A stretch of DNA of 64,000 bases from Candidatus Omnitrophota bacterium. Lineage in GTDB: Bacteria; Omnitrophota; Gorgyraeia; Gygaellales; Profunditerraquicolaceae. The notes beneath the pieces were generated by a model. That model did not search any database, was not told the origin of the DNA, and saw nothing but the letters and a program-made list of their open reading frames with translations. The position numbers and the translations under genes were made by a program. Positions 3,542 to 59,513 of the stretch are shown here, piece after piece. The stretch is from NCBI GenBank assembly GCA_041650295.1, contig JBAZLM010000004.1, positions 51,860-115,859 of the forward strand, written 5' to 3'. Every line of letters begins with the position of its first letter. The first letter of the stretch is position 1.

Positions 3542-4522
3542 ATGAATTTATTATTAGCACGGGTTTTATTTATCTTAGGTAGTATGGCGATTGGTTATCA
3601 GACAGTGGTGATTAATAGTTCTGGTTTAATTGGTATGGTGATTGGCGCGGCAATCGCCTTGCTGATGATTATGGCCGAAGCAGGATTACGTAAAGTTTCA
3701 GTGAGTGGATTATCGAGTGCGGTTTTTGGCTTAATCTTAGGTTTAATCATGGCTAAGTTGGTGGGGGATGCTTTTAGTATCGCACCTATCGATGCGTTAA
3801 TCCTTTCTAGAATTAGGGTGGGATTAACTTTAATTTTTTGCTATCTGGGTATGGTTATGGCTTTGCGCGGCAAAGATGAATTTAATATTATTATTCCTTA
3901 TGTGCGCCTGCGTAGACAAGATCAGGCTCAAGACGTAGTACTTTTAGATACTAGTGTAATTATAGACGGAAGAATTGTTGATCTTTGTAAGACACGTTTT
4001 TTAAGCGGAAAAATTATTATTCCAAAATTTGTTTTACGTGAATTACAGCAGATTGCTGACTCTACCGATCCGATTAAGCGCCAGAGGGGCAGACGAGGAC
4101 TAGAGATTCTGAATAACATTCAAAATGAACCGGGTATGGATATTACAATTCATGAACAAGATTTTACTGAGACTAGTGAAGTGGATGCTAAGTTAGTGTT
4201 GTTAGCTAAATTATTAGAGGCTAAAATTTTGACGGTTGATTTTAATTTAAATCGAGTGGCTAGCATTCAGGGAATTAAAGTTTTAAATATTAATGAGTTG
4301 GCCAACGCCTTAAAGCCGGTAGTTTTTCCTGGCGAAGAGATGCAGATTAAGTTAATCAAAGAAGGGAAAGAACATAATCAGGCAGTAGGTTACCTTGATG
4401 ATGGTACGATGGTGGTAGTGGAAGATGCACGCAGATTAATTGGCCAAGATGTTAAAGTAGCGGTAACTTCTGTATTGCAAACTCAAGCTGGTAGAATGAT
4501 CTTTACTAAAGTTGAGAAATAA
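3542..4522 (+). CDS. Membrane-anchored PIN/TRAM domain protein (YacL-like)
   Basis: Four predicted N-terminal TM helices, a PIN-like segment ([12 protein letters not shown]) and a C-terminal TRAM-like beta domain. It sits downstream of radA, as yacL does in Firmicutes. Confidence 0.6.
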
Positions 4523-4524
4523 TT

Positions 4525-5202
4525 ATGGTCAGTGCGATAGTCCTAGCCGCTGGGTTAGGTAAACGGCTTAAGAATAAATTAACTAAACCTCTAGTAAAGA
4601 TTGACCGTAAGCCAGCGATAATTTATTCCCTGGAAACTTTAAATCGGCATCCTAAAATTCGCGAGATTATTGTTGTAGTTGGTGCTAAAAATAAAGAGGC
4701 AATTAGTAAAGTTATTAGTAAGTGCTCTTTTAAAAAAATAAAAAGTTTTGTGTTGGGTGGTAGGCGTCGACAAGATTCAGTATATTGCGGCCTAAAAGCC
4801 GTGAGTGTAAAGAGTGATTTAGTTTTAATTCACGACTCGGCGCGACCGTTTGTAGATAGTAAATCCATCTCTAAAGTTATTCAGGCGGCTAAAAAATCCC
4901 AAGCTGCTATTTTAGGGGTGCCGGTTAAAGCAACTATCAAGCAAACTAAAAAAAATAGCCTGGTGGATAAAACATTAGATCGCAGTAATCTTTGGGAGAT
5001 TCAAACTCCTCAGGTTTTTAAAAAAGAGTTAATTTTTAAGGCTTATCAGAAATTTTCTAAAAGTAATGTCACTGATGATGCTTCTTTAGTGGAAAAGCTA
5101 GGTAAGAAAGTACAAATTGTTTTAGGTAGCTATAAAAATATTAAAATTACTACTGATGATGATCTTTTGTTAGGGCAGATAATTGCCAGGAGTAGAAGCT
5201 AA
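4525..5202 (+). CDS. ispD: 2-C-methyl-D-erythritol 4-phosphate cytidylyltransferase
   Basis: IspD N-terminal motif AIVLAAGLGKR. It overlaps ispF by one nucleotide (TAATG). Confidence 0.85.
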   Translation: MVSAIVLAAGLGKRLKNKLTKPLVKIDRKPAIIYSLETLNRHPKIREIIVVVGAKNKEAISKVISKCSFKKIKSFVLGGRRRQDSVYCGLKAVSVKSDLVLIHDSARPFVDSKSISKVIQAAKKSQAAILGVPVKATIKQTKKNSLVDKTLDRSNLWEIQTPQVFKKELIFKAYQKFSKSNVTDDASLVEKLGKKVQIVLGSYKNIKITTDDDLLLGQIIARSRS

Positions 5203-8558: not shown

Positions 8559-9504
8559 TATTTTAGGACAAGTTAAACCATTGAGTATCATTAATGCTTA
8601 TATAGAGGGATCGGCTTTTTCCGGAGGATTTATCTTTAGTGGTCCTGAAGGAATTGGTAAGTTAATGACAGCCAAAATTATTGCGCAGAAATTAAATTGT
8701 ACTAGTAGTACGGATAAGCCCTGTGGGATTTGTGAAGCTTGTATAAAAATGGAAAAATTAAATCATCCGGATTTGCATCTTATTCAAAATGGCGATGCTC
8801 AGATAAAAATTGAAGATATTCGCCTGATTTTGCGGGAAGCTAGTTTTCGGCCCTATGAAGGGCAGATGAAGGTTTTTATTATTGATAATGCGCACAAGCT
8901 TAATATTGAAGCGGCCAATTCGTTACTTAAAATACTAGAGGAGCCACCCAAGCAATCATTAATTATTTTAATTACACATAAACCTCAGAGTATTATTAAA
9001 ACAATCTTGAGTCGCTGTAAAGTAATAAGGTTTGCTCCTCTAGAGAGGAGTAGTTTACAAAATATATTAACTAAAAATTATTTTTTGGATGCCTCAAGCG
9101 CTCATTTTGTTGCTTATTATGCTGAAGGAAGACTGGGTTTAGCTTTACGTCTGAAAGATTCTTTACAGTTAATGGAAAAGAATAAAATATTTGATGCTTT
9201 TGTGCTTTCGCAGAAACCGCTGGATCGCTCTTTGGCGACTCAGAATAAAGAACAGCTACGTTCAACACTAAATATTTTAGCTGCCTGGTTTAGGGATTTA
9301 TATTTACTTAAAGCCGGTTGTAGTGAAAATGAAATAATTAATTTGGATCGCAAGAATGATTTATTAAAATTGATTCCTAAGTTTTCATTTAAACAGCTGG
9401 ATGATATTGTATCCAGTATTTCGGAGAGTATGTTGTATTTAGAGAAGAATATTAATAGTAAATTACTTTTGCATAACTTAGGAGCTCAATTATGGAAGGG
9501 ATGA
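8527..9504 (+). CDS. holB: DNA polymerase III subunit delta-prime
   Basis: AAA+ clamp-loader fold with a degenerate P-loop (GPEGIGKLM) and zinc module CGICEAC. It follows tmk as in many genomes. Confidence 0.7.
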   Translation: MFGRLLMGFANILGQVKPLSIINAYIEGSAFSGGFIFSGPEGIGKLMTAKIIAQKLNCTSSTDKPCGICEACIKMEKLNHPDLHLIQNGDAQIKIEDIRLILREASFRPYEGQMKVFIIDNAHKLNIEAANSLLKILEEPPKQSLIILITHKPQSIIKTILSRCKVIRFAPLERSSLQNILTKNYFLDASSAHFVAYYAEGRLGLALRLKDSLQLMEKNKIFDAFVLSQKPLDRSLATQNKEQLRSTLNILAAWFRDLYLLKAGCSENEIINLDRKNDLLKLIPKFSFKQLDDIVSSISESMLYLEKNINSKLLLHNLGAQLWKG

Positions 9505-10289
9505 TTCTAGTTCAACTGCGCAATTCTGGCCTGGTGGCGCTTTATCAGGCCGGTAATTTAATTTTAAAAGCCGGAGATTGTGTGATTGTTGAACATGATC
9601 GAGGACTAGATTATGGGGCGGTGGTTTTACCAGGACATGCCCGTTGCTGTGCTACAGAAGAAGCTTCGAAAGAACCGCCTAAAAAAATAATTCGCTTGGC
9701 ACGCGAAAGTGATCTTAAGCAAATTGATGACAATGTGATTAAAGCCAAAGAAGCCTATAATGTTTGTGATAAAAAAATAGCTGAGCATAAATTAGATATG
9801 AAGCTAGTAAAAGCTGAGTATTCTTTTGATCGTTCTAAAATTTTATTTTATTTTACCTCTGATGGCCGGGTGGATTTTCGCAATTTAGTTAAAGATTTAG
9901 CTAAAATGTTTAAAGCACGTATTGAGTTAAGACAAATCGGAGTTAGGGATGAGGCTAGACTTTTTGGCGGGTATGGCTCTTGTGGTCGGGAGCTTTGCTG
10001 TAAGAAATTTTTGAAAGATTTCGAACCGGTAACTATTAAAATGGCCAAAGAAGAAGGTCTGCCTTTGAATCCTCCTAAAATTTCCGGATTATGTGGAAGA
10101 TTAATGTGTTGCCTTTCTTATGAATATGAAACTTATAAGATTCTTTCTAAAGGTTTACCGCATGAAGGTGAGCATATTGGTACACCTCAAGGTAAAGGTA
10201 AAGTTATTGGTGTAAATGTTTTTAAGAGAGTGGTTAATGTGGAGTTAGAAGAAGGTGGTTATTTAGAGGTAAGTTATAAAGAGAAATAA
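9492..10289 (+). CDS. PSP1 C-terminal domain protein (YaaT/RicT-like)
   Basis: Cys-rich PSP1-like C-terminal region (CGRELCC...CGRLMCC). It follows holB as yaaT does in Bacillus. Confidence 0.65.
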   Translation: MEGMILVQLRNSGLVALYQAGNLILKAGDCVIVEHDRGLDYGAVVLPGHARCCATEEASKEPPKKIIRLARESDLKQIDDNVIKAKEAYNVCDKKIAEHKLDMKLVKAEYSFDRSKILFYFTSDGRVDFRNLVKDLAKMFKARIELRQIGVRDEARLFGGYGSCGRELCCKKFLKDFEPVTIKMAKEEGLPLNPPKISGLCGRLMCCLSYEYETYKILSKGLPHEGEHIGTPQGKGKVIGVNVFKRVVNVELEEGGYLEVSYKEK

Positions 10290-13798: not shown

Positions 13799-13826
13799 TT
13801 GATATTGATTTTTCCTTACCTATATT
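13799..13826 (+). promoter_or_regulatory. Candidate sigma70-type promoter for the giant gene
   Basis: TTGATA, a 16-nt spacer, then TATATT, about 50 nt upstream of the ATG at 13875. Confidence 0.3.
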
Positions 13827-13874: not shown

Positions 13875-16800
13875 ATGAAATTTAAGTCTTCAAAACTATT
13901 TAAAATCATTGCTTTGTTGATCTGTTTTGTGCTGTGCTTTGAGCAATCTGGCTTTGCGCAAATTGCCGCTCAACTGGATATCTCAGGCAAGTTATCTGGC
14001 TTGGTTAATTCCATCGCCCAGGACAAATTTCGCCCCCTACATCTGCGTTATCTTCAGTATGATACTAAACTCAATAACTTTAAGCTTCTTCTGGATAAGG
14101 GTAGCTCTAAAGAACTCTCTAAACCTTTTATCGAGCAATCCACTAAAACATTACTAAACTACTTCTTAGCCGGAGTCACTTTACCTAATGACACCTTTTG
14201 GGTAAACCTAAGACCGGATTCTCCAGATAACGTCATTGACCCAGCTTTAGCTCAAACCGACATCGGTCGCATTATGCTAGAAGCTGACGTCCAGCTTAAA
14301 AAAGATACGGCTAGCTTTACTTCTCCCAACACCCCAGAAGGCAAACAATACTGGGATAAGCTCTATACTAAAGCCGGAGAACTCTTTGGCTCTCAAAACA
14401 TCACTATCCCCACCTTAACCCGTCCCTGGATAGTCCCCAACGAGATCATCATCCGTGAGACTATTGATAACGCCTATATCTATAAAGCTACCCTAAAAGT
14501 CATGTTGGAAGATGATTACTTAAAAGAAGGTAAAGGTATCGGCACCGGTATAGATTACTCCTTCAAAGATGAAAAATTAAAACAACTCAACCAATACTCA
14601 TCTGAACTTATCCGCCAGTTAATCATTCCCAAACTAACCAAAGAGATCAACACCTCAAAACGCTACGCTAACCTGCGTCAGGTATACTACTCGTTAATCT
14701 TAGCCCAATGGTTTAAACAGAGATTTGCTAACAACTCTGGAGCTTATTCCAAACTAATCAACCAGAAAAACCTCACTAACCTAACCTCTAAAACCAGCTG
14801 GAGCAAGGATACTTACTTCCAGCAATACCAAAAGTCCTTTAAAGACGGGGAATACAATATCAAAACCCCGGTATCTACCCCTTACGGCCAGGTGATCAGG
14901 AGCTATTTTTCGGGAGGGATCAGGCCTATACCGCAAATTCCTGCTCCTGGAGAAGTATCGCAAGATGGTTTAGTTACTTCAGTAAAAGGGGGAGAATTAT
15001 TTGCAACGGTTACCGGAAGCGATAAGCTGGCAGGGGTTAGCATCGATGATGGAGTAGTAAAAACTACTGATCAGGCTCAGCCATCAAATGGATTTAAAAT
15101 AGAGGATCAAACTACCCCTCCAAAAGTTGAGAATGGTATCTCCGTTAGAAGAGTTGATCTATCCAAATTACCAGTAGGAACGATTATTAAATATAGAATT
15201 TCAAATGATAATTGGAATTATACCTTAAGAGTCGAAGCTAATGGAAGAGTTAGTATCTGGTTGAGGGAAGATCAAGGAAGAATAACCGCGTCGATTAAAG
15301 CTATTGGGAGCAGAGTTCCTTCACTTACCCCGGGCGATGCATATGATGCAGATTTTTTCGGAGAAATAGAACCTGGCGTATTAGCCTATCAGCCGTATTT
15401 TAATCAAACTGATATAGCTGGCAGCAAGGTGCGAGAATTAGTATCCATCGGTGATTATCCTATTCAAGCTACTCCGGAAGACATTATGGTCTATTTGCCT
15501 GATGGAAAAACTCAATTGCCTCGAGAAAAGCCACGGGCATTGCAAGATAAATTTAAGCGTAAAGTCAAAGAGCTAAATGAATTTATTGTTCATCATGGTA
15601 TTCCCGGAGAAAACCCGTTGGAGGCTAACGGATTTGAATTTTTGGTAAAAAGCGGGATAACTAAGGTGGAGATCTTGGCAGAGCGTTTAGGAATGGATAA
15701 GGATAGCCTTGAGGAGATTCTTAGCGCGGTTGAAGAGCAAAAAGGATGGGACATTATTGAAAAGACGATTGATACTTCGACGTTTAGTTTTGCTTTTGAA
15801 AAATTGGCAAAACTACAGGCCGAAAAGAATCTTTATCCAAAACCGCAAAAAACAATTAAGGAAAAGGCCTATGAATTTAAAGATAAAGTTATCAAATTTG
15901 TAAAAGATGAAACTGGCGCGTTGCAGCTAACAGGCTATCGCCAAGATAAAAAATTTAATCAAAAAATTGCAATGGATAAAAAGCTAGCAGGTTTTTATGC
16001 GATTGCGGAAGACCTACTTGAACAACTCCAAAAATTTCCAGATAAACAAGATCTAGTAATTGAGCTTATTGAAAATAAATTTAATGCATTAGTTAGGGAA
16101 TTTCCAAAACAACGCATAGAATTAAATAATGCTAAGAATGAACTTGTTAATGAGCTTGCTATTAATTTGTCATCTGGGCAGCAAGAAAGCATATATTTAC
16201 ACGGTTATTATGAGATTTTAAAAAATATTCTAAATAAATTAATCCCTTGGACGGATGATTTAAAAAAGAAAAACCCTGATTCAGAGTTTATTTTTGTGGC
16301 CAGAGATGCCGGATATATCTATTCGGTATTTAATGCTTTAGGAAAATTAGGTAAGGAGAAAGCCGAAGGATTTGTATATTATTTAAGCCGCGCTTCTATG
16401 TCTGAAGATTTAATTCGCAACGGTCCTTATGATACTGCAAGACGCATGATTAATCAAGCCCACTCAGATACAAAAACCGATAACATTAATGAGCTAACCG
16501 GAAATATTAGAAAAGAATTTAAAGATTATTTAGAACAGGACGATAGGTCTTTTTTGGATGAAACATCCCGTAAGGAATATTTAGAGTTTAAGAATATGGT
16601 GATTAAAGTTAATAGTGAGCTTAAAGCTTTAGGCTATGATCAATTGCAGAAACTAGTTTTGGTTGAGACAGGATTTAAAGGTACGATGCCGTTTTTGATA
16701 AAATTTATTTTAGATTTAGATAAAACGGATGAACAGTTAGCTAATGAAGCAAAAGAAAACGGTGGACAGGAAAATATTCAAGTCGCTATTTTAGAACCTA

Positions 16801-19800
16801 GGGATATTCCTGCTTTTACCGATGGTGTTTATGGCTTAACTGCAGAACAAGCTGAAACTGAGATGAATAAATTTGAAGATTTTTGGGGAGGTCAAGCAGT
16901 AGAAACTCCTGAGAGTGTGGTGGATCTCTTAGAAAAAGAAGATATCTCTCACCCGATAGAGTTTAACTTAATTGATTCAAGGGTAGAAAGAAATAGCAAT
17001 CCTGTTGAGTTGTTAAAATATTTTGTTAATCAGCTAGTAGTTGGGTTAGAAACAATTGAATATTATAAAAAAACTAGAAAGGTTGATGTTGAAAAGCCAG
17101 TGAATAAGTCCTTAGCACAGTTATCTCCTATTGCTGCGACTAAAATTATTGGCTCTGCGCTTGACAAAGGTAATAATTCTTTAGATGGACTGATTGCAGA
17201 AACCCCGGATTATACGGGAAAATTAGTTCAGTTGCAAAATCCCAAACAGATGAGCGCTGGAAATTTTGACGGTACTAGCCATCTGCAATTTACTGATGAT
17301 CCTCAGGGAAAAGCGGGGCAGGTTTGGTTATTTAAAGGTTATCCTCGGCAGAAATGGCATCGCGCTTTAGTTGATGAATTTGTTTATCATATAGCGGAAA
17401 AGCTTGGTTTAAAAAGTGCAATACCGGTTTTTGCCGGGCGGATTAAAAATGGATATATGACCGAGTTTGGAATGTTTATGCGCTGGGAGGAGAACATTGG
17501 TTCTTTGTATGAAGTTTATAGAGGTGATTTTATCCAAAAATTAAGTGAGAATAAAGAAAATCTTAAAACAGTTTTAAGGGAACAGGTCCTAGATTGGCTA
17601 GTTTCACAGCATGATTCCCATTCTCGGAATTTTCTTATTGCTGACGATAAAGACAAAAGTCTTATTCCGATTGATTTTTCACAGGCATTTAAGTTTTTAG
17701 GCAAAGATGAGCTTTCGCTTGATTACAATCCTAATGGTGATGTTAATGGCTACAATAATGTTGCCTACATGCCGATCTATAATCTTATTTATCAAGCAAT
17801 AATTAATAAAGAGATTGATTTTACCCTAACTGAGGCCTGGGAAGTTGTGCAGGAGGTGTTAGAGCGCGTAGAAGAAATGGATACTGATGAATATATTCAG
17901 GCTTTAAAACCTTATGCTGAATTTAGATTTAAAATAATGAAGGATGCTAGTTGGAGTATTAGAAATAGCGATGAATTTTTAAAGTTAGCCCGGGAAAGAA
18001 AAGTTAATATGCGTAAAGATTTCGAAAAGTTTTATAAAAAGCTCGGTTTTTCTAGTGAGACTGATTATCGTTTTAGTTTGCTGGAAATCATGGAGAACCC
18101 CCTCCAAGAGAAGCAAGAATTTTATGTCGATCAATTTAATGCGCTCTGGATTTTTAATGAAAATCAAGATTTGGCTACCAAACCTTATAAGTCTTTAGCG
18201 GCAAAAACTTATCATCAATTTATGGGAAAAGTTTTAGATCGCAATAGTATCGTTTTAGAAACAACTTTTAAAGCTAAAGATGGTCGCATTCGCACTGGAA
18301 CGATGCAAAAAGTTTTTTATCAGGAGCCCTCAGCCAATAAACAATTAAAAGAATTGAATCTTGCGGATTTCAGAGATTGGAGCCAAAACCGGGTATCTAT
18401 AAAATTTTGGGGGCTGGAACCGCCAAAGATTAAGCAAGTTTTGGAAGAGATGGTGATTGATTGGTTATTTTCTAATTACAGCAGTACCGAATCAACCTGG
18501 TTTGAACATGGGTACGCTAAATTCTATTTAATTTGTTTAGATGATAAATCGGATTCTTTTAAAGATTTTCCCAATGACAGGCTTGAGGCGAAAAAGGATT
18601 CTGATGATAAAATAAAACCACCTTTTGCTTACAATTTAGTTAAATATTTAGCTCTCCAAAATCGTCTTTCTATGGATCTGATTGAAGAAATATTGAAAAA
18701 AATTGAAAGTATTCCGGATAACGAAGTTGAAGAACTAATTCGTCCGCTAGCCAAAAGTTATGTTGCTACTAACCCTGATAAGTTTAAGCGTCCGGAAGAT
18801 TTTATAAAAGCATTTTTATCTAGAAAAGACAATTTACGTAAGGATTTTAAAGAATTTTTTCATCAAAATTATTTATTAAATACACCGTTTAATTCTCAAG
18901 TACAAACTCATCAGGCGATGACAGATAAATATATTATTTCCTCAGATCTCTATCAACAGATACATAATGCCCGAGGTGATCAAACCGCGATTATTAAGCT
19001 AATTAACCAACGTTTTAATGAATTAGCCGAAAATTTATCCTGGGAGGAAGTGGAACCTCTAGCGCAAAAAAAGGAAGAGCTGATTATCCGGATCACTGGA
19101 CCGCCAGTTTTAACGAATCAAGATGTACAAATGGATTTACAAACTAATCCTATTGTGCGAGATCGGAAGTTTAAAGCTATGTCTAGACTGTTGGCTTCTT
19201 GGGTTTATTCTTTAAGAGAGCAAAAACCTGATTATTATCTGATTGGTTTAGCCCGTGACGGAGGATATATTCCTTTAATTGATCAATTATTTAATTATGC
19301 TGGAATAATTCCTAAAACTGGCTCTAGTGTTTATCATTTGAGCTGCCCCCGGATGTCAGGAGAGACGCAAAAGAAAATTTATAGCATGATGTATGAAATT
19401 ATTGCAAATGCATTAAAAAATGTTGAGCATAATGATATCCAAGGTTTATATGCGCAAATTCGTTTAGGATTTAATAAAGCAATGGCTGAGAATTCAAGTT
19501 TTTTAGTGATGGTTACAGAAATTCGGAAAGAATTGATAGGGCTTGGATTTGATCAAAAAAATAAAATTGTCATTACGGATACTGGATTTTTTGGAACAAT
19601 TGCTTTCTATATCAAATGTATTTTAGATATGGATAAAAGCCAAGCAAGATTGGAACAAGAATTAGTGGATAATCATGGTCATGAAAATATTGAAGTTGCC
19701 ATTTTACAACCTAGCAGTATAGAAAGTTTTAACAAAAGTTTATTTGGTTTTGATACAACGAGACTTACTCAAGATGATCAGGCTATCGCCAGAAAGTTAG

Positions 19801-22400
19801 AAACAATTTTTGGTTTGCGCAATGTTTTAGGAAATGAATTTGAGAGCAATAAAATTATGCATCCGGTAAAATTTAATGAAGACAATTGGCTGATCGAAGA
19901 TACTGATGCCAGCTCACAATTGGAATTATTTTACCAGCAGATCATGATTGCTCAAATGGTGGATGCATTTATTGCTAGAGAGGGGATTGATTACCCGGGG
20001 CAAGATACTTTGGCTGGTTTTGGTGGCATTGATTTAGACGAAAAGATTGCCGCCCAGGCATTTTTTGATCAACCGGATAATGGTGAGTTAAAAGTTATTA
20101 TTGACCGTTGGTTTAAAGAGTTAATCGCTAAAGATGGATATGTAGCATTTAAGAAATTATATGATGCTTGCGGCCGGTTAAGCTTTATTAAATTATTGCG
20201 TTTAAAATTTCCCCTGCTTTCCACTAACATAATTTTGACCCCGAATCAAGAATTTAAAAGACAATCTCTGTTGGTGCAGTATCTACTTAAACGACAAGGT
20301 ATTCTAACCAGCAGTGTCCCGGTAGCTAGAAAAAAAGACCCAAAGAGCTTACCTTTTGAAGCGGATAAAAAATTCAGTGGTGTGTTATTGGATGTTGATG
20401 GCACAATTACCATGCCCGGCGGAGAGATATCTGATGCGATCATCGAAAAAGTTGAGGAAATGATTACCCGTGGAAACAAGGTAGGAATAGTTACTGGCAG
20501 AAGAGCGCTATCCCCGGATGTTTTTGAGGAGGTAATTAAATTAAAGGTTAACCGACAGGCGTTAAATAATCTTTACATTTTTACCCAGGATGGGGCTCAA
20601 GGTTATAGTGTAGGTGATACTAATCTGCGATGGGAATTTAAAACCGGTTTAAATGAACGAAAAAAGATTTTAAAGAAGTTGGAGCGAAGCGAATTGGTTA
20701 AGTTCCATTGCCAAATTATTCCTGAATCAGCAAAATTAATTTTTAAAATGGATAATCATGACGATACGGACGATTTAATTTTAACTTTAAAGATTGCTTT
20801 AGTTGATTTAGGTTTGGATGCTAAATATTCTGTGGTGGATGCCGGGGCAAATGTGCATTTAATCGCTAGTCAAGCGGACAAAGGAGCGGCAGCCAAAAAA
20901 TTTAGCAATGTAACCGGTTTAGCTCAAGAAAATATATTAAAAATTGGAGACAACTATAATTTGGATGGCAATGATTATCCAATGTTGGCTTTGCCCGGAG
21001 GGGTGGGAGTCAATGATAGCGAGACTACGCTTTGGTTGCTAGATACCTATTTTAAAAATACTGTATTGACCCCAAATATACAATTATTTGCACTTACCGA
21101 TGAGGGGACTGATCCTTTAAGTAATTCTCTGCATTTTGTTAACAATAAAGACATTACGAGTGTAATTTTACCCAAAAACAAATTCGCTGCTTCGGTGGAC
21201 ATGTTAAAAGTGTTTGAAGAATCTTTGCAATACGAATTAGGTAAAGTTCCGCTTTTTTCTATTTTCGGTTCACTTTCTTATGCGCGTGATAAAGAAGGTA
21301 ATATTATTTGGGATACGATCGGTGATTTTGATATTAAGCTTTATACTGAAGAATTATTATGGAATGATGATATCACAGAGATAAAACTTAACTTTTTAAA
21401 TGCTCTTAAAAATCTGGGAATAAAAGTGGATATTCAGGGTAGTGATTCTCCATCTGGATCAGGGCGTGATCTGAGTTCATTAAACTGGGGTATTCTGGAC
21501 AAGCAGGGCAAAAAATATATAGTACATATTATTAATTTTAGAACTAAAGATCTACTTTCTAAAAATGACGCTTTTGTAAATATCCGCAGTAATTTATTTT
21601 ATGGAGATACGCAAGCTTTAAATAATGCGTTGAACATTGTTGGCATTGAAACGGCGGTTGAACAAGCTGCGGTTAGCTGCGAAAAAACGATCTCAATTAT
21701 AAGCAATGCGATAGCTAAAGTAGAAAATATTCGGTCAGAGAATGTGAAACTATTAAAGAGATTATACCAAATTGCTTATGTACAAGGTCGAGAAGCTGAT
21801 TTTTATTGGCTTTTAGAAAAATACCGGAAATTAAGTTTAGAATTTAATCAACAGGATTTAGCTGACGCTTGTAATGAGGGAATCTCTAAACTTATTATGA
21901 ATCCTGAAGAATTACGTGCACTGTTACGTGATAGACTTAAAGCAAATATTAAATTAGTTGATAGTAAATCTATGGCTACTGTTGCGATTCCTGGCGCCGC
22001 ATCGGATAAAGGTGGCGTTGACTTTCGCGGTCTGCCAATTGGCATCCAAAGTCAAAGGATGATTGGCGCATCAGCAGTATTGATTCCGTCTCCAAGGTTA
22101 GATCAAGAGTGGAGCCAGATTGAGCGCATGCTTAACCAAGGAATTATCCCTTCTATTGAAAGGCTGAAAGATTATCTCTCTTTATCTTGTAAGGGCGCAG
22201 ATTGTTCGGCTAGAGTTGATCAAACCTTAAGCGGAATTGCCAATATTCTTAGAATTGAAGAAGAGAGCTTAACCCCCACTGATGCAGCTTTAAAACAACT
22301 GTTAATTTTACTGGAATCTAATCAACCGGCGAATCAATTACAGTTAGCTTTAACCAAAATTCAAGCATCAGAAAAGATGCCGGAGTTAGCTATTCATTAA
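13875..22400 (+). CDS. Giant secreted multidomain protein (2841 aa) with a signal peptide, two paralogous internal domains, a PI3K/PI4K-like atypical kinase motif set, a HAD-superfamily phosphatase domain and a possible nucleotidyltransferase-like segment
   Basis: Single uninterrupted 8526-nt ORF. The N-terminus has a signal peptide (MKFKSSKLFKIIALLICFVLCFEQSGFAQ). The clearest domain is HAD, with motif I LLDVDGTIT, motif II S/T (VGIVTGR), motif III K (DKGAAAKKF) and motif IV GDNYNLDGNDYPML. A kinase-like region has WLFKG, a DSHSRN catalytic loop and IDFS. GS...DFD suggests an NTase fold. Paralogous segments share ARDAGY/ARDGGY and TGF(K/F)GT motifs. Confidence 0.85.
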   Translation: MKFKSSKLFKIIALLICFVLCFEQSGFAQIAAQLDISGKLSGLVNSIAQDKFRPLHLRYLQYDTKLNNFKLLLDKGSSKELSKPFIEQSTKTLLNYFLAGVTLPNDTFWVNLRPDSPDNVIDPALAQTDIGRIMLEADVQLKKDTASFTSPNTPEGKQYWDKLYTKAGELFGSQNITIPTLTRPWIVPNEIIIRETIDNAYIYKATLKVMLEDDYLKEGKGIGTGIDYSFKDEKLKQLNQYSSELIRQLIIPKLTKEINTSKRYANLRQVYYSLILAQWFKQRFANNSGAYSKLINQKNLTNLTSKTSWSKDTYFQQYQKSFKDGEYNIKTPVSTPYGQVIRSYFSGGIRPIPQIPAPGEVSQDGLVTSVKGGELFATVTGSDKLAGVSIDDGVVKTTDQAQPSNGFKIEDQTTPPKVENGISVRRVDLSKLPVGTIIKYRISNDNWNYTLRVEANGRVSIWLREDQGRITASIKAIGSRVPSLTPGDAYDADFFGEIEPGVLAYQPYFNQTDIAGSKVRELVSIGDYPIQATPEDIMVYLPDGKTQLPREKPRALQDKFKRKVKELNEFIVHHGIPGENPLEANGFEFLVKSGITKVEILAERLGMDKDSLEEILSAVEEQKGWDIIEKTIDTSTFSFAFEKLAKLQAEKNLYPKPQKTIKEKAYEFKDKVIKFVKDETGALQLTGYRQDKKFNQKIAMDKKLAGFYAIAEDLLEQLQKFPDKQDLVIELIENKFNALVREFPKQRIELNNAKNELVNELAINLSSGQQESIYLHGYYEILKNILNKLIPWTDDLKKKNPDSEFIFVARDAGYIYSVFNALGKLGKEKAEGFVYYLSRASMSEDLIRNGPYDTARRMINQAHSDTKTDNINELTGNIRKEFKDYLEQDDRSFLDETSRKEYLEFKNMVIKVNSELKALGYDQLQKLVLVETGFKGTMPFLIKFILDLDKTDEQLANEAKENGGQENIQVAILEPRDIPAFTDGVYGLTAEQAETEMNKFEDFWGGQAVETPESVVDLLEKEDISHPIEFNLIDSRVERNSNPVELLKYFVNQLVVGLETIEYYKKTRKVDVEKPVNKSLAQLSPIAATKIIGSALDKGNNSLDGLIAETPDYTGKLVQLQNPKQMSAGNFDGTSHLQFTDDPQGKAGQVWLFKGYPRQKWHRALVDEFVYHIAEKLGLKSAIPVFAGRIKNGYMTEFGMFMRWEENIGSLYEVYRGDFIQKLSENKENLKTVLREQVLDWLVSQHDSHSRNFLIADDKDKSLIPIDFSQAFKFLGKDELSLDYNPNGDVNGYNNVAYMPIYNLIYQAIINKEIDFTLTEAWEVVQEVLERVEEMDTDEYIQALKPYAEFRFKIMKDASWSIRNSDEFLKLARERKVNMRKDFEKFYKKLGFSSETDYRFSLLEIMENPLQEKQEFYVDQFNALWIFNENQDLATKPYKSLAAKTYHQFMGKVLDRNSIVLETTFKAKDGRIRTGTMQKVFYQEPSANKQLKELNLADFRDWSQNRVSIKFWGLEPPKIKQVLEEMVIDWLFSNYSSTESTWFEHGYAKFYLICLDDKSDSFKDFPNDRLEAKKDSDDKIKPPFAYNLVKYLALQNRLSMDLIEEILKKIESIPDNEVEELIRPLAKSYVATNPDKFKRPEDFIKAFLSRKDNLRKDFKEFFHQNYLLNTPFNSQVQTHQAMTDKYIISSDLYQQIHNARGDQTAIIKLINQRFNELAENLSWEEVEPLAQKKEELIIRITGPPVLTNQDVQMDLQTNPIVRDRKFKAMSRLLASWVYSLREQKPDYYLIGLARDGGYIPLIDQLFNYAGIIPKTGSSVYHLSCPRMSGETQKKIYSMMYEIIANALKNVEHNDIQGLYAQIRLGFNKAMAENSSFLVMVTEIRKELIGLGFDQKNKIVITDTGFFGTIAFYIKCILDMDKSQARLEQELVDNHGHENIEVAILQPSSIESFNKSLFGFDTTRLTQDDQAIARKLETIFGLRNVLGNEFESNKIMHPVKFNEDNWLIEDTDASSQLELFYQQIMIAQMVDAFIAREGIDYPGQDTLAGFGGIDLDEKIAAQAFFDQPDNGELKVIIDRWFKELIAKDGYVAFKKLYDACGRLSFIKLLRLKFPLLSTNIILTPNQEFKRQSLLVQYLLKRQGILTSSVPVARKKDPKSLPFEADKKFSGVLLDVDGTITMPGGEISDAIIEKVEEMITRGNKVGIVTGRRALSPDVFEEVIKLKVNRQALNNLYIFTQDGAQGYSVGDTNLRWEFKTGLNERKKILKKLERSELVKFHCQIIPESAKLIFKMDNHDDTDDLILTLKIALVDLGLDAKYSVVDAGANVHLIASQADKGAAAKKFSNVTGLAQENILKIGDNYNLDGNDYPMLALPGGVGVNDSETTLWLLDTYFKNTVLTPNIQLFALTDEGTDPLSNSLHFVNNKDITSVILPKNKFAASVDMLKVFEESLQYELGKVPLFSIFGSLSYARDKEGNIIWDTIGDFDIKLYTEELLWNDDITEIKLNFLNALKNLGIKVDIQGSDSPSGSGRDLSSLNWGILDKQGKKYIVHIINFRTKDLLSKNDAFVNIRSNLFYGDTQALNNALNIVGIETAVEQAAVSCEKTISIISNAIAKVENIRSENVKLLKRLYQIAYVQGREADFYWLLEKYRKLSLEFNQQDLADACNEGISKLIMNPEELRALLRDRLKANIKLVDSKSMATVAIPGAASDKGGVDFRGLPIGIQSQRMIGASAVLIPSPRLDQEWSQIERMLNQGIIPSIERLKDYLSLSCKGADCSARVDQTLSGIANILRIEEESLTPTDAALKQLLILLESNQPANQLQLALTKIQASEKMPELAIH

Positions 22401-22475
22401 ACAGGACGCTTATCCTTCCTAAAAGGTTATCAGCCAAGTCAGAAGGTGGTTAGTTTGAGCGCCCTGTTTTATTTT
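22400..22475 (+). terminator. Putative terminator region after the giant gene
   Basis: Imperfect inverted repeat AACAGGACGC...GCGCCCTGTT followed by TTTTATTTTAT. Confidence 0.3.
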
Positions 22476-31901: not shown

Positions 31902-33242
31902 ATGATAAAAATATATTTAGCTTCGCAATCAAAAGCTAGAAAGAAGTTATTAGAGAGATTCGGTTTAAAGTTTCAGGTTTTTCCTTCCCGTGTTCAAGAG
32001 GTACAATCCCGTGGTAAATTAACCTTTGAGCAGTTAGTTAAGCACAACGCTAAAATAAAAGCTAAAGATGTAGCCGCAAAAATAAAAGAAGGAATTATTA
32101 TTGCTGCAGATACTATTTGCGTGCAGGATGGCAAAATTTTTGGCAAACCCAAAGATATGCAAGATGCCTGCAGCATGCTTAAAAAATTATCGACTAAACC
32201 GCAGTGGCTTTACTCTGGTTTAGTGGTAGTAAAAAAAGAGAAAACTCAGACGCGCATTTGTCTGGCATCTGAAAAAACCAAAGTTTATATGCACAGATTA
32301 ACTGACCAACAAGTTAATAATTATTTTAAACATGTATCTCCATTAGATAAGGCGGGAAGTTTTGATATATCAGGTAAAGGGGCAACATTTATTAAAAAAG
32401 TAGACGGTTGTTATTATAATGTGATTGGTTTGCCTTTGGCTAAGCTCTATCAAATTTTTAAGAAGCTTGGACTTTTTATGATTATTTTTTCAGTATTCAT
32501 TATTAACGGTTGTTCTACTGAATATAATTTGGTAACTAAGCAAGAGGAAAAATATTACTATAGTACAGATAAAGAAGTTTCGATGGGTCAGTCAATTGAT
32601 CGGCAAGTTCAGAAACAGTTAAAATTTACCAATGATCCTTTAGAAAAAAAACGAGTTGAAGATATTGGGAAAAAAATTGCTGCGGTAAGTGATCGTAAAG
32701 AAATTGATTATTATTTTCAAGTTTTAGATGACGATACGGTTAATGCGGTTTCTTTACCGGGTGGCTATATTTATGTAAATACTGGATTATTAGAAAAAAT
32801 TTCTAATGATGATGAACTGGCTTGTGTTTTAGCGCATGAGGTAGGTCATATTGTAGCTCGACATAGTATAAAAAAATTGCAAGCCATGCAAAGTTATTCT
32901 ATTCTTAGATTGTTAGTGGCGGTAGCTCCTGGCACTGGGGAGGTGGGTACAGCTGCCGATGTTGCTTTTAATCAATTTCTTTTAGGTTATAGTCGGGAAG
33001 ATGAATTACTAGCTGATCAATTGGGTGCTCGTTATGCGAAATTAGCCGGTTATGATCCGCATGGGATGATTGATTTTCTAAATAAATTACAAGAGATAAA
33101 TCGTAGAATGCCTTTGCAGGAACGTACATATTATAAAACTCACCCCTATGTACCTGATCGCGTTAGAGTAGTTAAGCAGGAGATTGGAGAGGCAATTGAT
33201 TTTGGGGATTACATAAATATCGAGCAGAAGGTGCATGAATAA
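31902..33242 (+). CDS. maf: In-frame fusion of Maf (nucleotide pyrophosphatase) with a signal-anchored M48 family zinc metallopeptidase
   Basis: Residues 1-190 carry Maf motifs (LASQS, ADTIC, GLPL). There is no stop before a lipoprotein-like signal MIIFSVFIINGC. The remainder has HEVGH and the downstream REDELLADQLG...AGYDP motif of M48 (BepA/Oma1-like). Confidence 0.7.
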   Translation: MIKIYLASQSKARKKLLERFGLKFQVFPSRVQEVQSRGKLTFEQLVKHNAKIKAKDVAAKIKEGIIIAADTICVQDGKIFGKPKDMQDACSMLKKLSTKPQWLYSGLVVVKKEKTQTRICLASEKTKVYMHRLTDQQVNNYFKHVSPLDKAGSFDISGKGATFIKKVDGCYYNVIGLPLAKLYQIFKKLGLFMIIFSVFIINGCSTEYNLVTKQEEKYYYSTDKEVSMGQSIDRQVQKQLKFTNDPLEKKRVEDIGKKIAAVSDRKEIDYYFQVLDDDTVNAVSLPGGYIYVNTGLLEKISNDDELACVLAHEVGHIVARHSIKKLQAMQSYSILRLLVAVAPGTGEVGTAADVAFNQFLLGYSREDELLADQLGARYAKLAGYDPHGMIDFLNKLQEINRRMPLQERTYYKTHPYVPDRVRVVKQEIGEAIDFGDYINIEQKVHE

Positions 33243-35979: not shown

Positions 35980-36381
35980 GGGGGTGAAAGGGTTCGACTT
36001 GAGATGGTCGGATAAGAGTAGCATGCCGCGGATGTAAGGTTAGCCGCGTTAAAAATCCTTGCACAATCTAAACGCAAACACAAACGTGTTCAACCGTTTA
36101 GCACCAAAGGCAGCAATGCCTTTGATGCCTGCGGGCGTACAAGCCTTAGCGTTTAATTAAACGTTAAGCCTCTAGCCGTTTTTGCCTACGAAACGGATTA
36201 GGGCCTTAGTAGGATAGCTTCGTCAGGTTAGCCTTTGTGGATGAAGCGAGATTTTAAAGGCTGCTCCTTGCAAATCCTGTCTGTAGAAGTTGCAAGGTTA
36301 AGACAAATTACAAGGCTAAGCATGTAGTGACTTTTATTTGATTACTTAAGGACCCCGGTTCAATTCCGGGCACCTCCACCA
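35980..36381 (+). ncRNA. ssrA: tmRNA (ssrA)
   Basis: The 5' GGGGGUG pairs with the 3' CACCUCC including the G3:U wobble. The 3' tRNA-like domain is GGACCCCGGUUCAAUUCCGGGCACCUCCACCA with encoded CCA. It lies 7 nt after the smpB stop. An internal ORF-like tag frame runs 36074-36160. Confidence 0.85.
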
Positions 36382-56591: not shown

Positions 56592-57245
56592 ATGAACGCA
56601 AATTCATTAATTGAAGATAAATTCATGCTAGATAAGGCATCTACCTCATTAAGCCGGCGTCAAAGAGATAGGTTGTTGCGTCAAGCTGATATTTTAAAAG
56701 CTGCGGAGCATGTTTTTGCTTTGAAGGGGTATTATGAGGCGACAATGCAGGATATCGCTAAAGAGGCTCAATATGCTACGGGAACGGTTTATTTGTATTT
56801 TAAAGATAAAGATGCACTTTATCTGTCACTAGTTGAGTCCAAGTATAAAGATCTTTTATCTATTTTAAAGGAAGAAACGTCTAAAACGCAGAGTGTTAGA
56901 GTTAAGCTTGAGATATTAATTCGCGAGAAGTTATCGTTTTTTGAGCGCAATCGGGATTTTTTTAGGATATTTATCTCAGAGAGAAATAAGAGTGTAGGTA
57001 GGTTTCATAAATTGGCTGTAGTTAGTCAACATCGTGAATTTATTGCGCAGTTAATTGGCTTGGCGCAAGAAGAGCATATTTTGAGAAAGGAGTATCCTTG
57101 TGAAAAAATTGCAGAGATCTTTATTTCCATATTAATGTCAGTTGTTTTTAATTGGTTAAAGGATGAAAATAAAAGAGAAAAAGATCTAACTCGGATGTCT
57201 GGCTTTGTTTTAAATATGTTTATTAACGGAGCAGGGAAAAATTGA
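56592..57245 (+). CDS. TetR/AcrR family transcriptional regulator
   Basis: N-terminal HTH (FALKGYYEATMQDIAKEAQYATGTVYLYF). It precedes the efflux operon. Confidence 0.8.
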   Translation: MNANSLIEDKFMLDKASTSLSRRQRDRLLRQADILKAAEHVFALKGYYEATMQDIAKEAQYATGTVYLYFKDKDALYLSLVESKYKDLLSILKEETSKTQSVRVKLEILIREKLSFFERNRDFFRIFISERNKSVGRFHKLAVVSQHREFIAQLIGLAQEEHILRKEYPCEKIAEIFISILMSVVFNWLKDENKREKDLTRMSGFVLNMFINGAGKN

Positions 57246-59504: not shown

Positions 59505-59513
59505 GTTAAGATT

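Follow-up and report, generated by a model that had tools for sequence, protein, structure and literature searches.

Polymorphic toxin systems, as Zhang et al. 2012 are said to have set them out, include Rhs, CDI, MuF and TANFOR. Their conserved N-terminus, presumed to serve trafficking, is followed by a variable enzymatic part, they have paralogues, and the variable part is swapped between close relatives. These traits recur in the proteins dealt with here, an Omnitrophota family with a conserved domain at either end (N-cap and C-cap), to which a giant protein of 2841 aa belongs. However, the variable part of a polymorphic toxin is a single C-terminal toxin, whereas in the cap family it is interior, multi-domain and kilobases in length, and the C-terminus is conserved. 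Also, the gene downstream of a polymorphic toxin is its cognate immunity gene, whereas the giant open reading frame (ORF) is followed by an MtnA-like gene and its counterparts at related loci by housekeeping genes. Neither an adjacent immunity gene nor an orphan cassette array was seen at family loci.

Polyvalent proteins, MuF-fused polymorphic toxins among them, likewise carry many unrelated substrate-modifying domains per polypeptide (Iyer et al. 2017, PMC5512222), and they too pair a constant carrier with a payload that varies, as the cap family does. The domains described for them include kinases, GNATs, Pol-beta NTases and ARTs (PMC5512222), and the range of two to fifteen domains by which they are recognized takes in the giant protein, which has at least five module types (A, B, HAD, NT and the caps). 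One of these, the B kinase domain, is held in common with MuF fusion proteins. Polyvalent proteins are encoded by phages, prophages, plasmids and conjugative elements, whereas the cap family is chromosomal and sits among housekeeping genes. Unlike polyvalent proteins, it has a Sec-type leader, lacks a MuF domain and is conserved at both ends.

Long multi-enzyme proteins with signal peptides have already been documented in Omnitrophota (bioRxiv 10.1101/2023.11.21.568195; 10.64898/2026.06.07.730766; PMC10066038). The Archaeovorins and the proteins of the multi-enzyme metabolic cluster, presented in the first two of these, come from the same phylum, bear signal peptides, are long, and overlap with the cap family in HATPase_c, methyltransferase, GNAT, HAD, NUDIX, GGDEF, PPDK_N and HEAT domains. 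They are, as given there, at least 10–30 kaa in length with tens of transmembrane (TM) helices, and their genes are flanked by T2SS, pilus or PilZ genes, whereas cap family proteins are 1.5–5 kaa with an N-terminal hydrophobic segment only, and have housekeeping flanks. The passages of these two studies that were consulted (10.1101/2023.11.21.568195; 10.64898/2026.06.07.730766) make no mention of the N-cap/C-cap signature or of cap-bounded cassette replacement.

The locus

The window, the whole stretch of DNA analysed, is 64 kb, and the features of interest are in Table 1. A first-pass annotation, made from the letters of this DNA, had described a single 8.5-kb ORF of 2841 aa among ordinary genes, and both points stand. 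The frame is uninterrupted; PSP1, MetRS, TatD and DUF362 genes are on its 5′ side, and MtnA-like, ThiL, TsaE, TsaB and Alr genes on its 3′ side. P0001, encoded on a 200,969-bp contig of a Candidatus Omnitrophota MAG, has the same sequence as the product, and this protein is on record from more than one assembled contig.

Table 1. Coordinates of the giant ORF, its modules and its flanking signals in the window
Feature	Residues	Positions	Strand	Basis or remark
Promoter-like −35/−10 pair TTGATA-16-TATATT		13799..13826	+	10/12 matches, in 165-bp upstream gap
Giant ORF, 2841 aa + stop codon	1–2841	13875..22400	+	single frame, without internal stop
Leader: basic n-region, 12-residue h-region, c-region EQSGFA/Q	1–28	13875..13958	+	inspection
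N-cap, family-defining alpha/beta domain, fold without named match	29–350	13959..14924	+	
Low-confidence linker, small beta-rich region, helical stretch	351–687	14925..15935	+	predicted structure
Module A1, paralogue of A2	688–1070	15936..17084	+	no Pfam or PDB sequence match
Module B1, intact atypical protein-kinase-like domain	1075–1400	17097..18074	+	fold
Module B2, degenerate copy of B1	1401–1665	18075..18869	+	sequence comparison
Module A2, helical arm + Rossmann-like alpha/beta core	1666–2040	18870..19994	+	
HAD-IIB phosphatase, all four motifs	2170–2379	20382..21011	+	profiles and motif reading
NT module, putative Pol-beta nucleotidyltransferase-like	2396–2700	21060..21974	+	alignment
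C-cap, family-defining C-terminal domain	2701–2841	21975..22397	+	in 120/120 members
Long hairpin + U-rich tract directly after stop codon		22399..22480	+	folding energy

Two ways in which the annotation might have been mistaken were named at the outset, and neither holds. Chimeric mis-assembly is ruled out by the unbroken frame, by the occurrence of the protein on more than one contig, and by an order of caps, N-cap first and C-cap last, that is the same in over 100 relatives. A routine adhesin, S-layer or repeat protein is ruled out as well, since domains of the repeat or adhesin kind are absent and the parts duplicated internally are enzyme-like modules. The HAD domain is the sole above-threshold library match and the source of the NCBI name ‘HAD-IIB family hydrolase’, but it makes up 7% of the protein; that the ORF is an artefact or plainly the hydrolase of its database name is scarcely credible.

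The signals proposed for initiation and termination of transcription fared less evenly. One promoter-like site is present upstream, but the number of such sites across the region, 31, is no higher than in shuffles (31.5), and the pair is only plausible as the promoter of the giant ORF. A simple scan gave no terminator, but the long hairpin right behind the stop codon (22399–22469; −21.5 kcal/mol, z −2.47; matched by 5 of 200 shuffles) is followed by UUUUAUUUUAU, and an intrinsic terminator is a plausible reading of the two together.

No second member of the cap family was found within the window. None of 80 related loci has the window's synteny, so no positional orthologue of the giant gene was found.

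A family defined by its two ends

Judged by its sequence, the giant ORF is a member of a large, apparently undescribed, Omnitrophota-specific and multi-copy family that shares head and tail domains. Family proteins have a Sec-type leader, a conserved N-cap, a variable string of enzyme modules, and a conserved C-cap with the consensus GG[IV]DFRxLP ... EWxxIExMxNxGIxPSxER ... IADILRxEEE ... LLES. There are 487 homologues, and the 119 matches listed have in common only residues 1 to ~350 and ~2700–2841. At least 476 family genes are in species-representative genomes, with record titles that are almost all Omnitrophota, and a single genome may hold four copies or more. The statement that the protein fits no described family is therefore true for curated libraries but not in the sense of an orphan, as it has hundreds of cap-sharing Omnitrophota relatives.

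The caps are conserved to about the same degree as the adjoining housekeeping proteins. The N-cap (320 aa) has no structural neighbour in the PDB, the set with which its fold was compared. Both caps, module A and the NT module were also compared as profiles with PDB sequences, with nothing above chance level, and scans of these four against Pfam and PHROG were negative. The sole outside similarity of the C-cap is a weak PPR-like helical resemblance. A match of the C-cap to PPR/AEP1 and one of the N-cap to a viral ‘Penton protein’ are too weak for any reading, and the cap folds offer no hint of function.

The neighbours of family genes are housekeeping genes, without recurrent secretion-system, chaperone or immunity genes beside them, and T2SS, pilus or PilZ genes are absent from the window and from the 80 related loci. 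One family slot sits close to dnaN/gyrBA. Such neighbours, that slot included, would also accord with a core cellular role.

Leader and export

The signal peptide of the original annotation is supported, as a signal-peptide-like leader, both by inspection and by family statistics. The n-region is K-rich, the h-region consists of 12 uncharged residues, and small residues are at −3 and −1. Of 120 family members, 112 have EQSGFA/Q; the median n-region charge is +3 and the median h-region length 12. The n-, h- and c-regions and the −3/−1 positions can be read as the layout of a Sec-type cleavable signal peptide, and EQSGFAQ is so strictly conserved that it may be a site recognised for processing. 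No further TM-like segment was found in the giant protein by a KD19 scan outside the N-terminal hydrophobic stretch, the highest KD19 value past the first 40 aa being 1.46. Were the N-terminus on the inner side, most of the giant protein would lie outside, and the leader would suit export through Sec.

A different reading of the same stretch, as a membrane tether or as no targeting signal at all, would make the giant protein a regulatory multi-enzyme protein of the cytoplasm or the inner face of the membrane. All recognisable modules require cytoplasmic cofactors (ATP, Mg2+ and possibly PRPP), signalling-type domains are abundant in family interiors, and published topology predictions for the long proteins of Omnitrophota are admittedly uncertain. 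Against it, the positive n-region with small −3/−1 residues is the classical cleavable-signal layout, 12 residues are too few for a stable TM span, the conserved EQSGFAQ speaks for processing, and wholesale replacement of payloads in close relatives, described next, is unusual for housekeeping regulators. The cytoplasmic alternative is considered improbable.

Turnover of interiors

Between the caps, family members are mosaics of domain-sized blocks. The interiors are unlike between paralogues and also between genes at one chromosomal slot in close relatives, where DNA similarity breaks at the cap edges. Identical dnaN-gyrB-gyrA-glmS-rsmI synteny is found at 28 loci, between which the interiors have a median coverage of 0; at the same loci GlmS is 73%, RsmI 73% and the N-cap 67% identical. 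Even locus pairs with GlmS 91–94% identical have the caps alone in common (the L046/L053 pair has the N-cap alone, within the part of the loci compared). When collinear loci at 81–85% nucleotide identity are compared by blastn, the alignment ends with the N-cap and restarts at the C-cap, and the gap spans unrelated interiors of 6.2 versus 3.3 kb and of 3.3 versus 2.9 kb.

Any interior block at all is shared by 7.6% of family pairs. The median shared block is 221 aa and its median positional offset 543 aa, and in 25 of 81 multi-block pairs the order of the blocks is unlike. Precomputed Pfam matches show kinases, phosphatases, GNATs, methyltransferases, Fic, M48 peptidases, NUDIX and GGDEF domains in the interiors of other members; HATPase_c and FHA are, with GGDEF, signalling-type domains that are also frequent there.

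The combination of the same caps with swapped enzyme blocks in close relatives suggests an exported, fast-diversifying multi-enzyme effector. From the positions of breakpoints in a few genome pairs, the caps may act as recombination handles.

Modules of the giant protein

The order in the giant protein is leader, N-cap, linker region, A1, B1, B2, A2, HAD-IIB, NT module and C-cap. Model confidence is low (pLDDT <50) over most of residues 345–560; the beta-rich region at ~420–545 is also in P0012.

Modules A1 and A2 (688–1070 and 1666–2040) are 36–38% identical in their core. They are the two paralogous internal domains of the first-pass annotation, which was right about their relationship but not about their length, each being ~380 aa rather than 230. 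The motifs LARDGGY, YHLS, IVITDTGFFGT and HPVKFN are in A2, whose only non-kinase structural neighbours are PRPP-ribofuranosyltransferase/HAD-like enzymes. Duplication, beyond what had been claimed, extends to the kinase module as well (1075–1400 and 1401–1665).

An HAD phosphatase with four motifs had also been proposed, and both profile and residues agree with this. The domain scores 58.6 bits with TIGR01484 (cutoff 41.8) and 31.9 with Pfam Hydrolase_3 (20.9), and the motifs, read from the sequence, are DVDGT (D2173, D2175), T2207 in GIVTGR, K2336 in DKG, and GDN...GND (D2359, D2367). In passing TIGR01484 and having motifs I–IV, residues 2170–2379 resemble the HAD-IIB (Cof/SPP-type) sugar-phosphate phosphatases; unlike these as usually found, they are inside a 2841-aa protein with predicted export. 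Scores with the equivalog and subfamily models (Cof, SPP, phosphoglycolate phosphatase) are far below cutoff, e.g. 42.1 versus 137 for Cof, so substrate specificity is not transferable.

In the NT module, G2465-S2466 ... D2484-x-D2486 is invariant in four sequences (the giant protein, P0005, P0007 and P0116), in agreement with an hG[GS]...DxD signature. The GS-to-DxD spacing is 17 residues; in classic Pol-beta enzymes the hG[GS]-DxD spacing is shorter, 9–13 residues. The module has no Pfam or PDB sequence match.

A kinase shared with phage proteins

Fold comparison bears out the kinase-like region. Module B1 has a bilobal kinase fold in which the conserved Lys, the catalytic Asp and the metal-binding Asp are present, the candidate catalytic residues being K1154, D1247/H1249/N1252 and D1267. 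A PI3K/PI4K-type catalytic loop of the DRHxxN kind, HDSHSRN (D1247, H1249, N1252), is followed by a DFG-type Asp in IDF (D1267). HDxHxxNF...IDK is retained in the homologous B-A cassettes of P0002, P0004 and P0006, and the position of the catalytic-loop Asn in B relatives is N, Q, G or S. B2 and A2 form a conserved B-A cassette; the catalytic loop of B2 is NYSSTESTWFE, and it is probably a pseudokinase.

Profile scores leave B1 outside the named families. PF00454 gives 14.3 bits (gathering 27.1) and matches 4 of 18 B-domain relatives (best E 0.0024; 9e-4 in a set of six members). PF07804 (HipA) gives 22.5 bits (gathering 30.5) and matches 13 of the 18, all sub-threshold (best E 1.7e-6), and there was no Pfam match to a HipA N-terminal domain or a HipB partner in the giant protein or its neighbours. 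Of the earlier description as a multi-enzyme protein with opposite chemistries, the pairing of a kinase-like domain with an HAD phosphatase stands, but the PI3K/PI4K Pfam threshold is not reached. The closest structural neighbours of B1 include CtkA, MavQ, Fam20 and CotH, which are kinases acting outside the cytoplasm of the producer. B1 is under the Pfam gathering score of each of the PI3/4K, HipA, CtkA, Fam20 and CotH families, and B differs from these kinases in a distinct conserved C-terminal helical part.

The B domain is found with Phage_Mu_F, with ADPrib_exo_Tox (an ADP-ribosyltransferase toxin) and with an XkdF-type protease. In phages it is fused to MuF minor-capsid proteins and adjoins ADP-ribosyltransferase toxin domains. 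Viral contigs carry 209 relatives, and among the best 80 of these MuF is upstream on the same strand in 64. Relatives in phage proteins that act on bacteria argue against a lipid-kinase role.

Both this kinase and the multi-enzyme layout, which fits the polyvalent-protein concept, could be taken to mean that a prophage or mobile element encodes the giant protein and is in the chromosome by chance. Other evidence points elsewhere. The N-cap is on 2 of 2.9 million viral contigs, with both matches running to the contig end, against 476 in genomes; modules A and NT were not found on viral contigs at all; and a search of the window and of related loci, with their flanks of conserved housekeeping genes, turned up neither a MuF domain nor genes for phage, integrase or conjugation functions. 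A chance prophage at this locus is very improbable. For the cap family as a whole, housekeeping synteny and the near-absence of viral N-caps speak against a prophage origin, which is rejected as largely refuted.

What the protein may do

The preferred explanation, with a probability of about one half, is that the giant protein is a polyvalent effector which is exported and whose payload, between the caps, can be exchanged as cassettes. The giant protein would leave the cytoplasm through Sec by means of its leader, and the caps would carry out the common steps of export, anchoring or hand-over. The interior would be a polyvalent payload of enzymes that phosphorylate, dephosphorylate, and carry out nucleotidyl or phosphoribosyl chemistry, with its targets on a partner cell (host or prey) or inside it, where ATP exists. 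Published accounts describe Omnitrophota as predators or as dependent on hosts, and attribute to them long multi-enzyme proteins that are exported. Several points count against this explanation: family genes have housekeeping neighbours without recurrent delivery or immunity genes, the caps give no hint of their function, the C-terminus is conserved where classical polymorphic toxins vary, and ATP-dependent enzymes in the periplasm or on the surface would be without substrate unless delivered into another cell. The role in a host or prey may be regarded as the more plausible for the cassette turnover and for a payload domain in common with phage-injected proteins.

Cap-coding DNA could serve as handles for homologous recombination, allowing payload cassettes to be exchanged and the repertoire to diversify fast. 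The fuller proposal of a chromosomal, cap-bounded cassette exchange, with caps that export or anchor, cap DNA that recombines, and payloads that are swapped at fixed slots and drawn partly from domains of the phage pool, is tentative, at rather less than even odds.

Alternatively, the protein may be directed at its own producer, as an exported enzyme scaffold for the envelope or coat, with the variation being surface diversification, for instance in evasion of phage or host. Conservation of the leader across the family, fixed gene positions among housekeeping genes with no delivery machinery found nearby, and published proposals of an extracellular coat made by Omnitrophota giant proteins all accord with this, and HAD-IIB together with the PRPP-transferase/HAD-like neighbours of module A touch on sugar-phosphate and capsule chemistry. 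However, it is not obvious what would power ATP/NTP-dependent modules (kinase, nucleotidyltransferase) beyond the cytoplasm, the kinase module is common to phage proteins thought to be injected into cells (PMC5512222), and adhesin domains, repeats and TM segments are missing from the interior. An envelope role is considered unlikely.

Significance

The Omnitrophota, bacteria of ultra-small size and wide distribution that are believed to live at the expense of other cells, have many long multi-enzyme proteins. An anonymous ‘HAD-IIB hydrolase’ here becomes the entry to a family that two sequence signatures suffice to define, that is in several copies per genome, and whose payloads are wholly replaced between close relatives. 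One Omnitrophota payload domain is now tied to the kinase of phage MuF proteins, and the N-cap and module A are two confidently modelled domains with no, or only distant, structural relatives. If true, cap-bounded exchange would differ both from polymorphic toxins, with their C-terminal tips and immunity genes, and from phage polyvalent proteins, and would represent a novel means by which host-dependent bacteria of ultra-small size diversify their effector arsenal.

The giant gene and its surroundings

The giant gene (13875..22400, + strand) is one uninterrupted reading frame of 2841 codons. Its product is 100% identical to a Candidatus Omnitrophota MAG protein on a 200,969-bp contig, which NCBI names 'HAD-IIB family hydrolase'. 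The single giant ORF of the first-pass annotation is borne out by its continuity and by the occurrence of the identical protein on more than one assembled contig, and there is little to be said for an artefact. The ordinary metabolic flanks that it described are also real: PSP1, MetRS, TatD and a DUF362 Fe-S protein lie upstream, and an MtnA-like IF-2B family protein, ThiL, TsaE, TsaB and alanine racemase downstream. The remainder of the window is housekeeping genes as well. Of the gene-specific signals proposed there, the terminator is plausible, as a long hairpin (−21.5 kcal/mol, z −2.47) and then a U-rich tract immediately follow the stop codon. A sigma-70-like site with 10/12 matches does lie in the 165-bp gap 5′ of the ORF, though shuffled sequence contains such sites just as often as the region does.

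The window has a GC content of ~36% and a strongly positive GC skew, and its strand bias is extreme: the + strand carries ~55 of the 66 ORFs that reach 100 aa, nearly all the plausible genes among them. Cumulative GC skew climbs monotonically across 1-64000, skew being positive throughout. The tag peptide predicted for a tmRNA gene at 35980-36381 (Rfam 173 bits) is unusually long, at 28 aa (ANTNVFNRLAPKAAMPLMPAGVQALAFN). One ORF at 31902-33242 encodes a fusion protein in which residues 3-188 form a Maf-like nucleotide pyrophosphatase domain and residues 246-426 a Peptidase_M48 domain, the latter a type also found repeatedly in cap-family interiors. An outer-membrane efflux protein (OEP) gene near a fused ABC-ATPase/MacB-type permease (657 aa) at 57242-61487, ~35 kb 3′ of the giant gene, resembles a MacAB-TolC-like export system; no evidence links this pair to the giant gene.

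Architecture of the giant protein

Self-comparison reveals two internal duplications. The pair of paralogous domains already reported corresponds to module A, and a second pair, module B, is to be added.

Parts of the giant protein, with pairing in self-comparison
Part	Residues	Pairs with
Leader	1-28	
N-cap	29-350	
Low-confidence linker, small beta region and helical stretch	351-687	
Module A1	688-1070	1666-2040
Module B1	1075-1400	1401-1665
Module B2	1401-1665	
Module A2	1666-2040	
Linker	2041-2169	
HAD-IIB	2170-2379	
NT module	2396-2700	
C-cap	2701-2841	

The only above-threshold matches in curated libraries are HAD models, Pfam Hydrolase_3 and TIGR01484 (58.6 bits, cutoff 41.8). Since all four HAD motifs are also legible in the sequence, the phosphatase assignment made initially is confirmed.

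B1 carries WLFK (K1154), a catalytic-loop-like HDSHSRN (D1247, H1249, N1252) and IDF (D1267). In B2 the corresponding residues are gone, NYSSTESTWFE being present instead, and because they are kept in the equivalent modules of the homologues P0002, P0004 and P0006, B2 is probably a pseudokinase. Matches of B to kinase-family profiles are sub-threshold throughout and always at the catalytic loop: among 18 B relatives, HipA_C in 13, PI3_PI4_kinase in 4, Fam20C in 3 and ABC1 in 1. A PDB search with B also grazed Fam20B xylosylkinase. The structural neighbours of B1 (comparison values in brackets) are CtkA (15.1), PI4KIIα (14.8 and 14.4), PI4KIIIβ (12.6), Vps34 (12.5), HipA-family kinases (11.3-12.4), Legionella MavQ (12.1), and CotH and Fam20 (11.8); classical protein kinases give about 8-9, and PI4KIIα is the top Foldseek match. 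The PI3K/PI4K-type motifs noted at first are therefore real at the level of motif and fold. Family membership does not follow, the matches being below the PI3K/PI4K threshold and bacterial Ser/Thr protein kinases being just as close to B1.

Module A has no match in Pfam, PHROG or PDB sequence searches and is rare (about 11 representative clusters among 1.84 billion proteins). Its hosts are always very long proteins, in which it usually directly follows B to form a B-A cassette. The confident A2 model (pLDDT about 90) has a helical arm and then a Rossmann-like beta/alpha core. Its conserved motifs have two possible readings. In one, IVI(V/T)DTGFxGT, at a strand end, resembles the PRPP/phosphate-binding loop found in type I phosphoribosyltransferases; in the other, LARDGG and YxLS could be HAD motifs I and II in degenerate form. 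Invariant in the NT module is GS...(17 residues)...DxD, the signature of Pol-beta nucleotidyltransferases, with a spacer longer than the classic one; Pfam and PDB sequence searches give that assignment no support.

A family defined by its two ends

A whole-protein search returned 487 homologues. Those listed, 119 in all, come from Omnitrophota and range in length from about 1,560 to 4,940 aa, and all that they have in common with the giant protein is residues 1-~350 (55-74% identity, leader included) and ~2700-2841. After a +3 n-region and a 12-residue uncharged stretch, 112 of the 120 members have the leader motif (E/Q)Q(S/T)G(F/L)AQ. About half of the listed homologues are without any Pfam domain; interiors of the listed set include HATPase_c, metallophosphoesterase, MidA and other methyltransferases, GNAT, ABC1, M48, Fic, NUDIX, GGDEF, FHA and PPDK_N.

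Scanning representative genomes, one for each species, gave 476 relatives. Titles of the best 80 loci are virtually all Omnitrophota or ENA placeholder names, and within these 80 several genomes have three or four copies. One locus (L057) has two N-cap matches on the same strand, separated by 5 kb (3997-5001 and 8987-9994), tandem members of which the first is short. The only N-cap matches not labeled Omnitrophota, ENA 'uncultured Planctomycetales' or unclassified 'bacterium' are L040, a 6-kb contig labeled Thermodesulfovibrionia (JAGVGM010000297.1), and the IMG/VR contigs L082 and L083. As the first contig is short and the other two matches touch a contig end, all three are probably mis-binned or mis-classified Omnitrophota fragments.

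The DNA encoding the N-cap (13875-14950) has a GC skew of −0.19 to −0.28 versus +0.2 around it, and a higher GC content (0.41). Across loci L001-L080 the median N-cap skew is −0.06 versus +0.10 and +0.14 in the flanks. Possible causes include constraint on the amino-acid sequence and gene conversion between copies.

Long multi-enzyme Omnitrophota proteins with signal peptides are documented in earlier reports (10.1101/2023.11.21.568195; 10.64898/2026.06.07.730766; PMC10066038), so the bare observation is an instance of a known phenomenon. The openly searchable literature yielded no account of the two-cap signature, of the family's copy number, of cap-bounded cassette replacement at conserved housekeeping slots, or of a payload-module link to phage MuF proteins; an earlier description of any of these in subscription literature is possible.

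Replacement of interiors at conserved loci

At 28 of 78 loci the family gene follows dnaN, a small ORF, gyrB, gyrA, glmS and rsmI on the same strand (the named genes being assigned by sequence similarity). Between these positional equivalents median identity is 73% for GlmS, 73% for RsmI and 67% for the N-cap, and the median pairwise coverage of interiors is zero. In the pairs L026/L071, L011/L071 and L011/L026, with GlmS 93-94% identical, the caps are the sole likeness; L046/L053 (GlmS 91%) have only the N-cap in common within the part of the gene covered, and a closer trio (L012, L015, L018) has displaced blocks. The DNA of L011/L026 and L026/L071 is collinear at 81-85% identity from the upstream genes through the N-cap, loses similarity ~1.1 kb into the gene, and regains it at the C-cap and downstream genes, the dissimilar interiors being 6.2 versus 3.3 kb and 3.3 versus 2.9 kb. 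Among the 120 members, 7.6% of pairs have any interior block in common (median 221 aa, median offset 543 aa). As to domain order, for which comparison of homologues had been advised, the caps keep their places at the two ends, and of 81 pairs with several blocks in common 25 have them in a different order. Between the caps, interiors are shuffled on the scale of domains and payloads replaced wholesale.

In close pairs among L011, L026, L071, L022 and L043, RsmI and GlmS identities do not go together (for example 69-74% for RsmI versus 93-94% for GlmS), which, rsmI being just 5′ of the N-cap gene, suggests that the recombining region can reach upstream of it. Upstream of family members, the homologues of GyrA (1335 aa; L032 3295-7299) and GyrB (1267 aa; L079 516-4316) have large insertions with intein-like boundaries (C...VHNS) and HNH/homing-endonuclease-like repeats. 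In 10 loci an EF-G-like protein (1050 aa; L007 4075-7224) is encoded 5′ of the family gene, one or two genes away; it has a 370-aa N-terminal extension comprising a hydrophobic segment and a charged coiled-coil-like region.

Module B in phage proteins

When representative proteins were searched exhaustively with a profile of the B-A cassette, 1,199 had a B-type domain; only 5 of the 147 newly listed have an N-cap. Outside the cap family B lies C-terminal to Phage_Mu_F (P0212, P0169, P0240, P0197), the name 'minor capsid protein' being given to one cluster member. In P0226 and P0238 B is joined directly to ADP-ribosyltransferase exotoxin domains, and in P0193 to an XkdF-type phage protease. P0183 and P0249 match phrog_6577, a phrog without known function. 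IMG/VR contigs have 209 B relatives, and a MuF domain is upstream on the same strand in 64 of the best 80. This cap-family member and phage MuF proteins thus have the B domain in common. Prophage origin of the whole gene has little in its favor: the N-cap has 2 matches in 2.9 million viral contigs, both touching a contig end, and neither module A nor the NT module was found on IMG/VR viral contigs.

In the 'polyvalent proteins' described from phages and plasmids, domains such as kinases, GNATs, Pol-beta NTases, ARTs and peptidases occur together (Iyer et al. 2017, PMC5512222). MuF-type B sequences have a conserved GSIQ at the position for which a diagnostic glutamine is given in that study and are candidates for the same clade.

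Possible function

An exported polyvalent effector is the reading preferred here, with a probability of about 0.5. It is favored because payload enzymes need cytoplasmic cofactors while the leader points outward; the same leader makes a cytoplasmic or regulatory role, to which the cofactors would be suited, improbable. Fast payload turnover, as in conflict systems, and the presence of one payload domain in the presumed repertoire of phage-injected domains also favor an effector, as does the host-dependent or predatory life, with export of long multi-enzyme proteins, reported for Omnitrophota. Against it, the housekeeping location is fixed and no delivery or immunity gene is linked to family members: no secretion, chaperone or immunity genes recur beside them, the recurrent neighbors being housekeeping only. 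A self-directed envelope role, with which such a setting would agree, is unlikely, though less so than a cytoplasmic one. For the exported effector, the leader would direct export of the giant protein, the caps would serve as carrier and their DNA in recombination, and the payload may act on or in a partner cell.
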